This document shows, piece by piece, positions 3,774 through 25,514 of a stretch of DNA of 34,512 nt (the stretch's first letter is position 1; the number at the start of each line of letters is the position of its first letter). The stretch is taken from assembly GCF_006345805.1 (NCBI RefSeq), contig NW_021836216.1, positions 1-34,512 of the forward strand. The letters run 5' to 3'. Position numbers and translations under genes: made by a program. Below the pieces are notes generated by a model. It ran no database searches, was not told the DNA's origin, and saw nothing but the letters and a program-made list of their open reading frames with translations. The stretch comes from Octopus sinensis. Its lineage: Eukaryota.

Positions 3774-3963
3774 ATTATATTATATATATATATATATCAT
3801 ACATATATATGTACTGGAAAATAGCGAACGTAATAAATACGACGTTAATGTATAGCTTCACTGCGTATGTACTAGTAAAGACGCGTGTGTACAAAAAACA
3901 TGAAAAGAATTGTCTTACCTTAGGAAGAACATCTGAAAAATGAAAAAAACCTAGAAACGGATA

Positions 3964-4035
3964 ATGCAGGACCGGTTTCAGACTCTCCAAAATACTTTTG
4001 CCAACGTATATTTGATTTGTCCTCATCAGCTGCAT
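3964..4035 (-). ncRNA. Type I hammerhead ribozyme (canonical core)
   Basis: Minus strand reads ATGCAG-CTGATGA-GGAC...GTCT-GAAA-CCGG-TC-CTGCAT. Perfect 6-bp stem I, palindromic stem III, GUC triplet. Confidence 0.88.
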
Positions 4036-4392
4036 AAACCTCGACAACATTTCAAATGTTGCCACATCTATGACAGTACACTCGTCTGAACGCCAAAACG
4101 TTAACAGAACGAGAACAGTGAAGAAGTTTCAATGAAAATAGTAATGCAATACGAGAGTATTGCTTTCCAGTAAAGGATTGCCCGTAAGGGTAAAATTATA
4201 CATATAAAAGTAAATAAATGGCACAACGAAGCACCAATATTTACTAGAAAATAGCGAACGTAATAAATACGACGCTAATGTATAGCTTCACTGCGTATGT
4301 ACTAGTAAAGACGCGTGTGTACAACAAACATGAAAAGAATTGCCTTACCTCTAGGAAGAACATCTGAAAAATGAAAAACCTAGAAACGGATA

Positions 4393-4464
4393 ATGCAGGA
4401 ACGGTTTCGGACTCTCCAAAATGCGTTTGCCAACGTATATTTGATTTGTCCTCATCAGCTGCAT
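4393..4464 (-). ncRNA. Type I hammerhead ribozyme (second copy)
   Basis: Minus strand reads ATGCAG-CTGATGA-GGAC...GTCC-GAAA-CCGT-TC-CTGCAT. One substitution in stem III gives a UUC triplet. Confidence 0.8.
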
Positions 4465-4515
4465 AAACAAATATATGTGTATGTATATATATATATATAT
4501 GTGTGTGTATGTATG

Positions 4516-4917: not shown

Positions 4918-5788
4918 GCAGGAGTGGCTGTGTGGTAAGTAGTTTGCCAACCAACCACGTGGTTCCGGGTTCAGTCCCACTGCGTGGCAACTTGGGCAAG
5001 TGTCTTCTGCTATAGCCCCGGGCCGACCAATGCCTTGTGAGTGGATTTGGTAGACTGAAACTGAAAGAAGCCTGTCGTATATATGTATATGTATATGTGT
5101 ATGTGTGTTTGTATGTGTGTGTTTGTCCCCCTAGCATTGCTTGACAACCGATGCTGGAGTGTTTTCGTCCCCGTCACTTAGCGGTTCGGCAAAAGAGACC
5201 GATAGAATAAGTACTGGGCTTACAAAGAATAAATCCCGGGGTCGATTTTGTTAGTTAGTTAGTTAGTTAATTTGGCTCAAAAGCAAATAGCAAGGCCATG
5301 TAGGGGGACATGGAGTTAAGTACAGGGTGGTGTTCATGTAAAGAGTTCAGGCCACTTGAGGTCCAGGGAGGCTTTGAACAAAGCGGTCGTCGGCATCTTC
5401 ACCATCTCGTCTGGCAGCTTGTTCCACGGATCCGCAACCCGGACGGAGAAAGCTCCTCTCCTTCGATTAAATGAAATCGTCGCAGGTAGAGCTTTTCGGA
5501 ATGACCCCGCAGCCGACGCTCTGGAGCAGGAGTGAGAACAGCAGCTCCTTCGAGAGGTTACACTTCCCGCTTATGATGTTGTGGGCGAGAATGAGATCAC
5601 CACGGCGGCCGGCGTTTTTCAAGAGAATAAAGGTCGAGCGTCCTCAGCCTTTCTTCGTAGGACAAATTTTGAGACCATGAACCATGCGGGTAGCCAGCCT
5701 CTGGACTCTTTCGAGATGCTGTATGTCTTTGAGGTGTCTCCAGCATGGCCGCAGTCAAATGACTGAAACAAGTAAAAGAAGTAAAAGA

Positions 5789-6124: not shown

Positions 6125-6535
6125 CTCTTTTACTCTTTTACTTGTTTCAGTCATTTGACTGCAGCCATGCTGGAGCACCGCCTGTAGTCGAGCAAATCGA
6201 CCCTAGGACTTATTCTTTGTAAGCTTAGTACTTATTCTATCGGTCTCTTTTGCCGAACCGCTAAGTTACGGGGACGTAAATACTCCAGCATCGGTTGTCA
6301 AGCGATGTTGGGGGGACAAACACAGACACACAAACACACACATATATATACATATATACATATACATATATACGACGGGCTTCTTTCAGTTTCCGTCTAC
6401 CAAATCCACTCACAAGGCTTTGGTCGGCTCGAGGCTATAGTAGAAGGCACTTGCTCAAAGTGCCATGCAGTGGGACTGAACCCGGAACCATGTGGTTCGT
6501 AAGCAAGCTACTTACCACACAGCCGTTCCTGCGCC
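6125..6535 (-). mobile_element. SINE family A, full length
   Basis: Reverse complement of the 622-1027 element. Confidence 0.9.
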
Positions 6536-24815: not shown

Positions 24816-25514
24816 AAAATTATATATATATGAATGTATACAAATATATCTTTGTACGCGCGTGTGTGTGTGTACATATATACATATGCATATATTGGTA
24901 TATATGTATAATATGATAGCCTAGATATGTGATAAGAAGTTTGCTTTCCAACAACATGGAACCGGATCCAGCCAGACATATGTATGTGGTTGGTGGTAAT
25001 GGGGGGAACTTTTTGTCAAAACTTCTGGAAGAAACATAGAATACTTCCATACACAAAGTTTGTGTCGCAAAGAAAGCAAAAGAATATAGCGAGGGAATCA
25101 GTATCAAAACCGAATAGCAATCTTTATATCTAACTTAACGAGTATGTCTTGTTCGAATGCTGAATACTGTTGTATTTGCCTTGAGAGGTCCTTTCATATA
25201 GACAGATGGTTTTAAGAGCACAGGTATATATCGTTAGCAGAGGAGAACCGTCAGGGGTAAGCGCTGGAGTTGCCAGATCACGTGATTTCAGCGTACTGCG
25301 TTTCTTCAGTGACAGGAGTCCAGTCGTTGCGTGAACGGAAAGAGAAGACAGCACTATTATATAAACAAAATACAATAACTATCTTGGACTGTGCTGGTCC
25401 TGCCCGGATCACCCAGACTCTTCATGTCTAAAACGAATTAAAATACAAAATTCATAAAACAGCGGAATATGCATCGCAACATTTTGTATTCAGATTAAAA
25501 TTGAAAATACGCAA

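Follow-up and report, generated by a model that had tools for sequence, protein, structure and literature searches.

We consider it highly probable that a repeat pair in a contig of Octopus sinensis (NW_021836216.1) is a decayed 1.5-unit copy from a dispersed, non-coding family of hammerhead ribozyme (HHR) repeats, a family likely to be copied in trans by the reverse transcriptase (RT) and GIY-YIG endonuclease of a Neptune-type Penelope-like element (PLE). The evidence includes the way in which members of this family end, at two fixed sites, and how these two sites are distributed between the arms of inverted insertions.

The window, that is, the whole stretch of DNA analysed (34,512 nucleotides, a 34.5-kb contig), is rich in (TA)n and other microsatellites, and the 1-kb bins that hold the copy have a GC content of 0.35 to 0.36. 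The genome in which the family was searched comprises 2.72 Gb in 13,516 contigs. A very high-copy dispersed repeat, presumably a SINE, recurs through the window (4918-5270, 788-1024, 6129-6532 and elsewhere), and a possible second HHR remnant, CUGAAGA ... GAAAUCACGUGAUC with a palindromic stem III, lies at 25309 on the minus strand. Features of the copy are collected in Table 1, where q denotes positions in the 429-bp unit.

Table 1. Features of the HHR repeat copy, in window coordinates
Feature	Positions	Strand	Remarks
1.5-unit insertion of the 429-bp HHR repeat family	3808..4468	minus	TA-rich tracts on either side; unit q1-429, then q1-~229; q1 = window 4468 on the minus (HHR) strand
Upstream type I HHR	4393..4464	minus	Predicted cut 4399/4398; ACCGUU disrupts the stem III palindrome; expected to be weak
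Downstream type I HHR	3964..4035	minus	Predicted cut 3970/3969; core and ACCGGU palindrome intact
Predicted cut-to-cut monomer, 429 nt	3970..4398	minus	Branched fold pairs HHR stem I across both ends
Site A	4197..4207	minus	q262-272, includes ATATGTATA; main fixed 3' end of the family; internal in the window copy
PLE-type 'tail', ~65 nt	4132..4196	minus	q273-337; terminates at site B, the second fixed 3' end
Predicted 11-bp helix	4164..4250	minus	4250-4240 with 4174-4164; encloses site A
5' splice-site-like motif, AG|GTAAG(A)	4343..4350	minus	50 nt past the cut; family-conserved; putative

The direct repeats of ~227 bp claimed in a preliminary description of this DNA are real: 4242-4468 and 3812-4039 align over ~228 bp with 95% mean column identity, and blastn takes the second copy to 3807. 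The ~200 bp between them, described as unique, are actually the remainder of the family's 429-bp unit. A minus-strand type I HHR had also been proposed for each repeat, and the core and stems are present in both, with predicted cuts 429 nt apart. Each has a CUGAUGA core (4458-4452; 4029-4023), GAAA, a 6-bp stem I (AUGCAG/CUGCAU), a 4-bp stem II base within a bulged stem II of 43 nt, and a 2-bp stem III with a CG loop; cleavage is predicted after q70. The stem II change between the two (GGAC/GUCC versus GGAC/GUCU) exists, but it is one-sided only, G-C to G-U.

An Rfam scan of the window at the gathering score gave zero hits. Below that score, Hammerhead_HH9 (RF02275) matches both HHRs (E 0.036 and 0.002; 19.8 and 23.8 bits versus 52): core, stem I and GAAACC...GGUC agree, whereas the window HHRs carry a 32-nt stem II insertion and a much shorter stem III. 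Because the isolated motifs fold like their shuffles (z -0.1 to -0.8), the evidence for the HHRs is the core motif and covariation, not folding energy.

One difference had been overlooked. Of 100 family HHR copies, 77 carry ACCGGU; the upstream HHR has ACCGUU instead, which places a C-U mismatch beside the core in the monomer and in the stem III dimer earlier proposed between the two window HHRs alike. Since the upstream HHR carries this mismatch, release of a monomer at the window locus is predicted to be poor; that a monomer comes from this locus is doubtful, and the locus is probably a poor source. The 3' end is short as well, lying ~40 bp before the family norm (q~229, norm q~272). The window copy is a decayed, damaged passenger, and we turn to the family to which it belongs.

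A DNA search of the genome with the unit yielded at least 55 matches when 40 of 1,976 candidates were scored. All 30 loci listed are permutations or tandems of one 429-bp unit, reaching 3.25 units. An 18-base anchor (q214-231) has 739 exact hits in the genome and its reversed control none; our estimate suggests a family of at least ~600 loci. From the first 100 listed anchor hits, on chromosomes C1 and C2, and with 4 duplicate loci dropped, we obtained an unbiased sample of 84 loci (115 arms), picked by neither HHR nor length. The unit is non-coding, and none of the PLE ORFs tried matches it significantly at the protein level. A genome-wide search for 1.x-mer arrays had been suggested earlier; the unit proves to be dispersed over many chromosomes, in arrays of up to 3.25 units, rather than restricted to the window locus, so that a reading as local duplication only fails. 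The label 'retrozyme-like non-autonomous HHR retroelement' is supported; in the copies examined, no ORF is joined to the unit.

The HHR looks to be under selection in the family, to judge from its sequence. Among 100 HHR-spanning segments, from loci not picked for an HHR, CUGAnGA is found in 95, GAAAC..GUH in 87, both in 82, and GAAACCGGT in 77. The covariation alignment comprises 62 of these 82 distinct sequences, those omitted being mostly second copies from the same locus, and 94.7% of its cells are paired on the named HHR structure. Double changes occupy 80 cells, versus 27.6 in shuffles and at most 19 with slid partners, tallies that count sequences rather than independent events and reflect a few subfamily events. 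They touch three of the six stem I pairs (for example C-G to U-A and A-U to G-C) and two of the four stem II pairs (for example C-G to U-A).

Folding of the whole unit is also better than in shuffles. For the window monomer, z is -5.1 as a linear molecule and -4.2 as a circle. Ten family monomers were tried as circles; two gave no extraction, and the other eight have z between -3.95 and -6.49 against 25 shuffles each, with -2.2 to -5.5 for the antisense strand. HHR stems I and II are formed in three of the four printed predicted circle folds, and in near-full units (n = 43) several long-range pairs vary on one side with pairing kept. The predicted long helices are also possible in linear RNA of unit length.

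How do members of the family end? The 5' ends are scattered. At the 3' side, site A (q255-292) is where 75 of the 115 arms stop, almost all of them at q266-272; another 31 stop at site B (q325-340), and 9 at neither. A TA run follows 88 of the 106 site A or B ends, a raw count in a genome where TA runs are very common; the (TA)n flanks also make target-site duplications unreadable. Head-to-head inverted pairs are present at 26 of the 84 loci, and their arms start almost always at different sites: 21 pairs are A+B and none B+B, three have a broken arm, and two were classed as A+A. In both of the latter one arm enters the tail, and at one of them (L215) the tail remainder lies 1.1 kb off. The 58 non-inverted loci end at A in 47 cases, at B in 7 and elsewhere in 4. 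The two fixed ends are ~65 nt apart, which is the length of the tail.

Truncation at 5', partial tandems, adjacent inverted 5' copies and a tail on one arm are features of the PLE type. PMC8557442 lists tandems that are truncated, inverted copies next to them, a one-ended tail and insertion into microsatellites as PLE features. In vitro, cleavage and extension of the two target strands have been demonstrated for a PLE protein, and reverse transcription begins at two internal RNA sites, which define the tail; HHR cleavage is unnecessary there, HHR mutants having not impaired insertion (PMC11167929). PLE tails as described measure 30 to 40 nt, whereas the tail of the octopus family is longer, ~65 nt.

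A mechanism may be proposed along these lines. Where a locus has both HHRs intact, which is rare, its RNA would be cut through a stem III dimer into ~429-nt monomers, by analogy with known retrozymes, and a host ligase would close them. The PLE endonuclease would nick the target within (TA)n, and the DNA end so released would prime cDNA inside the RNA, at site A (q~265-272) or at site B (q~337); site A would then be a start of reverse transcription. Extension of both target strands would yield one arm from A and the other from B, and an enzyme that crosses the HHR junction into a second round would leave copies of 1.x to 3.x units, such as that of the window.

The question arises as to whether the template is a circle. 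Of 66 arms that reach q94, 58 continue past the HHR cut site. The rate of 5' ends at the cut, 0.12 per 40 nt, equals the rate before it, and an excess of first-pass 5' ends at the cut was tested for and is absent (p 0.11-0.47); the 5' ends of L175 and L216 (q10) were called too short, with subfamily divergence, which leaves the cut-site count unaffected. Because arms cross the cut with no excess of ends, the template must have been ligated, or uncut, at the HHR passed. More than one unit is present in 17 arms, at 16 of the 84 loci, and copies of 2.7 to 3.25 units exist, while two complete HHRs in tandem occur at 1 locus of the 84. Repeats within a locus diverge by 3.9% on average in tandem (46 pairs) and by 3.0% when inverted (32 pairs), as if both repeats of a locus had been made at insertion. 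Rare variants in tandem pairs (29 shared versus 356 unshared) do not separate circular from linear templates.

Two clusters of 5' ends would suit linear RNAs. In the unbiased set, ends are enriched at q324-363 (13 of 38, p 0.001), possibly a transcript start. Among the best 40 long copies, a score-selected set, 13 ends fall in q61-90 versus 3 in q11-60, near the upstream cut (p 0.007, and p 0.04 or 0.14 by other windows, all chosen afterwards). Contigs of five runs guessed to be RNA (X1, X2, X5, X4, X13) hold family sequence, though such contigs are blind to strand, level and circularity; the ratio of the family to the neighbouring high-copy repeat is lower in these five than in X15, a run whose kind is unrecorded, and no spliced joint of the unit is listed in their contigs.

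Continued multi-unit copies are most simply accounted for by a circle, and we give slightly better than even chances to a circle as the likeliest long-term template, versus slightly worse than even for linear uncleaved multimers with template jumping. The reverse transcription around a circle suggested in the preliminary description fits the copies, but uncleaved multimeric linear RNA explains the same copies. Our fuller reading, that the family records Neptune PLE copying round an HHR-made 429-nt circle with target strands primed strictly at two RNA sites, is put forward tentatively, at just under an even chance. A serious competitor, to which we give roughly two chances in five, keeps the same family and the same PLE machinery and dispenses with the circle: the templates would be linear RNAs, transcribed from multi-unit loci, left whole at the downstream HHR though occasionally cleaved at the upstream one, and tandems would be rebuilt by template jumping. 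The two clusters of 5' ends speak for it, as do the ability of linear unit-length RNA to form the long helices and the observation that uncleaved RNA is the dominant substrate of an Anolis PLE in vitro (PMC11167929). However, copying of linear templates only shortens them, yet more than one unit is present at 16 of the 84 loci; double changes in the stems of the HHR are maintained between subfamilies; and analogous repeats of mussel, coral and axolotl do give circles (PMC7229834).

There are two further explanations. The repeats could belong to an autonomous PLE, as its 5'-truncated ends (pLTRs), if the copies that bear its ORF went unsampled; we regard this as unlikely. The order of HHR, splice-donor-like motif, site A and tail is that of a Neptune 3' UTR (see below), and the search for PLEs covered ~90 of more than 14,000 candidates; however, arms that extend upstream of the HHR enter the unit's own 3' half, the unit matches none of the PLE ORFs tried, and the PLE fragments in the flanks of 6 of the 84 loci are not joined to it. 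Still less probable, and largely refuted at the level of the family, is that a one-unit insertion was duplicated in place later, by slippage or unequal crossover, so that the repeat would involve no RNA step. The atypical 3' end of the window copy would be in its favour, but the 429-bp period recurs at many unlinked loci, and the window pair has 0 rare variants in common and a divergence of 4.0%, like the other tandem pairs and close to the inverted ones.

As to the helper, the genome has many GIY-YIG PLEs. ORFs of 775 to 781 aa combine RVT_1 and GIY-YIG domains with a CX2-5CxxC linker, which is given for Neptune and Nematis in PMC8557442; by this linker, rather than by a tree, they would be of Neptune type. 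One such family (30 loci) has two 3' ends ~50 to 60 nt apart at (TA)n, and its 3' layout is like that of the unit, with an HHR-like motif containing GAAACCGGUC, a splice-donor-like motif, a T-rich end and an optional tail, found on one arm only in four of five inverted pairs. The comparison of the unit with ~90 PLE loci (of more than 14,000 candidates) yielded no autonomous element with a matching pLTR or sequence similarity. GIY-YIG profile and protein searches, with 12 long PLE loci and 30 other palindromic-HHR loci, yielded no PLE that shares the unit's sequence. Because no pLTR among those ~90 loci matches, we infer the PLE partner from architecture alone. A PLE protein fragment is present in the flank at 6 of the 84 loci and is joined to the unit in none. 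Three of the six lie upstream on the same strand, 0.6 to 1.1 kb off, at different protein positions, and at L228, read base by base, unrelated repeats intervene before the unit. An RT/GIY-YIG ORF is absent from the window, and none is joined to the sampled copies. Since the flank fragments are not joined and no PLE matches in sequence, the family is non-autonomous as far as sampled. A single 38-nt match, between q201-237 and the antisense strand of the stretch that precedes YxDD in a PLE RT (E 8e-4), was set aside as probably due to chance: 1 of 200 shuffles did as well, it came from one of four databases tried, and it has no extension. The resemblance spans ~40 nt when q194-237 (window 4232-4275, plus strand) is laid against L290:2520-2563.

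Several HHR repeat families seem to be hosted by this genome. A second one (L123, L126, L137, L140, L147, L241, L265), unrelated to the unit in sequence, has the same layout, with a long stem II, ACCGGU, GAG|GTAAGA, (TA)n ends, inverted copies and a tail; its loci gave no PLE protein match. Further short HHR repeats with ACCGGU (L242, L243, L247, L257, L260, L261, L264, L266), several of which end at (TA)n, gave none in the flanks fetched. In the 3' UTR of the Neptune-type PLE (L093-L122, e.g. L095:2074+) there is a minimal HHR-like motif whose stem I has 6 bp and whose core is AUGAAUA, in which an A3-U8 pair replaces C3-G8; searches for CUGAnGA overlook such motifs. U3-A8 cores (UUGAnAA) are seen in other PLE families (L073, L074, L080, L081-L086), some with the palindrome ACAUGU. 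PMC4209133 reports U3-A8 as well as HHR dimers through a palindromic stem III; A3-U8 is not noted in the parts of that paper available to us. A splice-donor-like motif is found ~30 to 55 nt past the HHR cut in the unit family, the second family and the Neptune 3' UTR, a placement as would be expected for a PLE pLTR intron; spliced copies were not observed.

Tandem HHR repeats with circular RNAs are already known in molluscs and other animals, as are PLEs as their proposed helpers. The retrozyme papers, as far as they were available to us, argue the PLE link from co-occurrence and pLTR similarity, and the octopus family displays the tail, inversion and (TA)n signature directly. With this comes the near-strict rule by which the arms of inverted insertions start at different sites. 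Together, the insertion anatomy and this A/B rule make two questions testable with a small RNA: whether PLEs copy circles, and how two start sites are used. If the fuller reading given above is correct, the family would provide direct evidence for a retrozyme-PLE partnership so far inferred, and PLE twin priming could be studied on the 429-nt unit as a minimal natural substrate. The value lies in the clean two-site insertion record of the family, not in the damaged window copy.

The family is likely a previously undescribed member of the known animal retrozymes, of the non-autonomous PLE type. We found no description of it in the octopus and cephalopod literature on HHRs, retrozymes and Penelope elements, a search outside which subscription journals, supplements, Repbase and Dfam mostly lay. 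A plant LTR retrozyme (type III HHR, true LTRs) was rejected as a model: here a type I HHR is combined with repeats that form a permuted tandem unit. Closest are the animal non-LTR retrozymes (Cervera and de la Pena 2020, PMC7229834; Li, Clavereau and Pollet 2026, bioRxiv 10.64898/2026.07.22.740005). Type I HHR repeats of 150 to 450 bp give circular RNAs in coral, mussel and axolotl, with PLEs as likely helpers (PMC7229834), and such repeats have been tied to PLE pLTRs in 35 genomes, those of vertebrates, insects and one coral; in the latter work, 1 of 9 retrozyme dimers tested cleaved and 8 did not (10.64898/2026.07.22.740005). Common to these and to the octopus family are a type I HHR within a tandem, non-coding unit a few hundred bases long, a short palindromic stem III, low GC (<50%), a predicted circle that pairs with itself, and the occurrence of PLEs in the same genome. 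Mussel units measure 350 to 390 bp and the octopus unit 429 bp, within the range of the class. Those retrozymes stand in long arrays, whereas the octopus family consists mostly of dispersed copies, from less than a unit to 1.x units; it further differs by its long, bulged stem II (43 nt), by a circle that is predicted, and by the absence of a matching pLTR among the PLEs found.

Non-autonomous PLE derivatives such as Chlamydomonas MRC1 (Craig et al. 2021, PMC8557442) are alike in their pLTR-like partial tandems and head-to-tail multicopy insertions, and the octopus family also has the PLE features of inverted 5' copies, a one-ended tail and insertion at microsatellites. Such derivatives generally resemble the 3' end of their autonomous partner, a likeness not found for the octopus family among the ~90 PLE loci compared, and most Chlamys elements are devoid of HHRs, whereas the octopus family has an HHR and a ~65-nt tail. 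Finally, the family has AT-rich targets and an HHR in the repeat in common with Poseidon PAc of Anolis (Frangieh et al. 2024, PMC11167929) and Neptune-clade PLEs, and it would also share with them two internal RT start sites, by which the tail is defined, and extension of both target strands.
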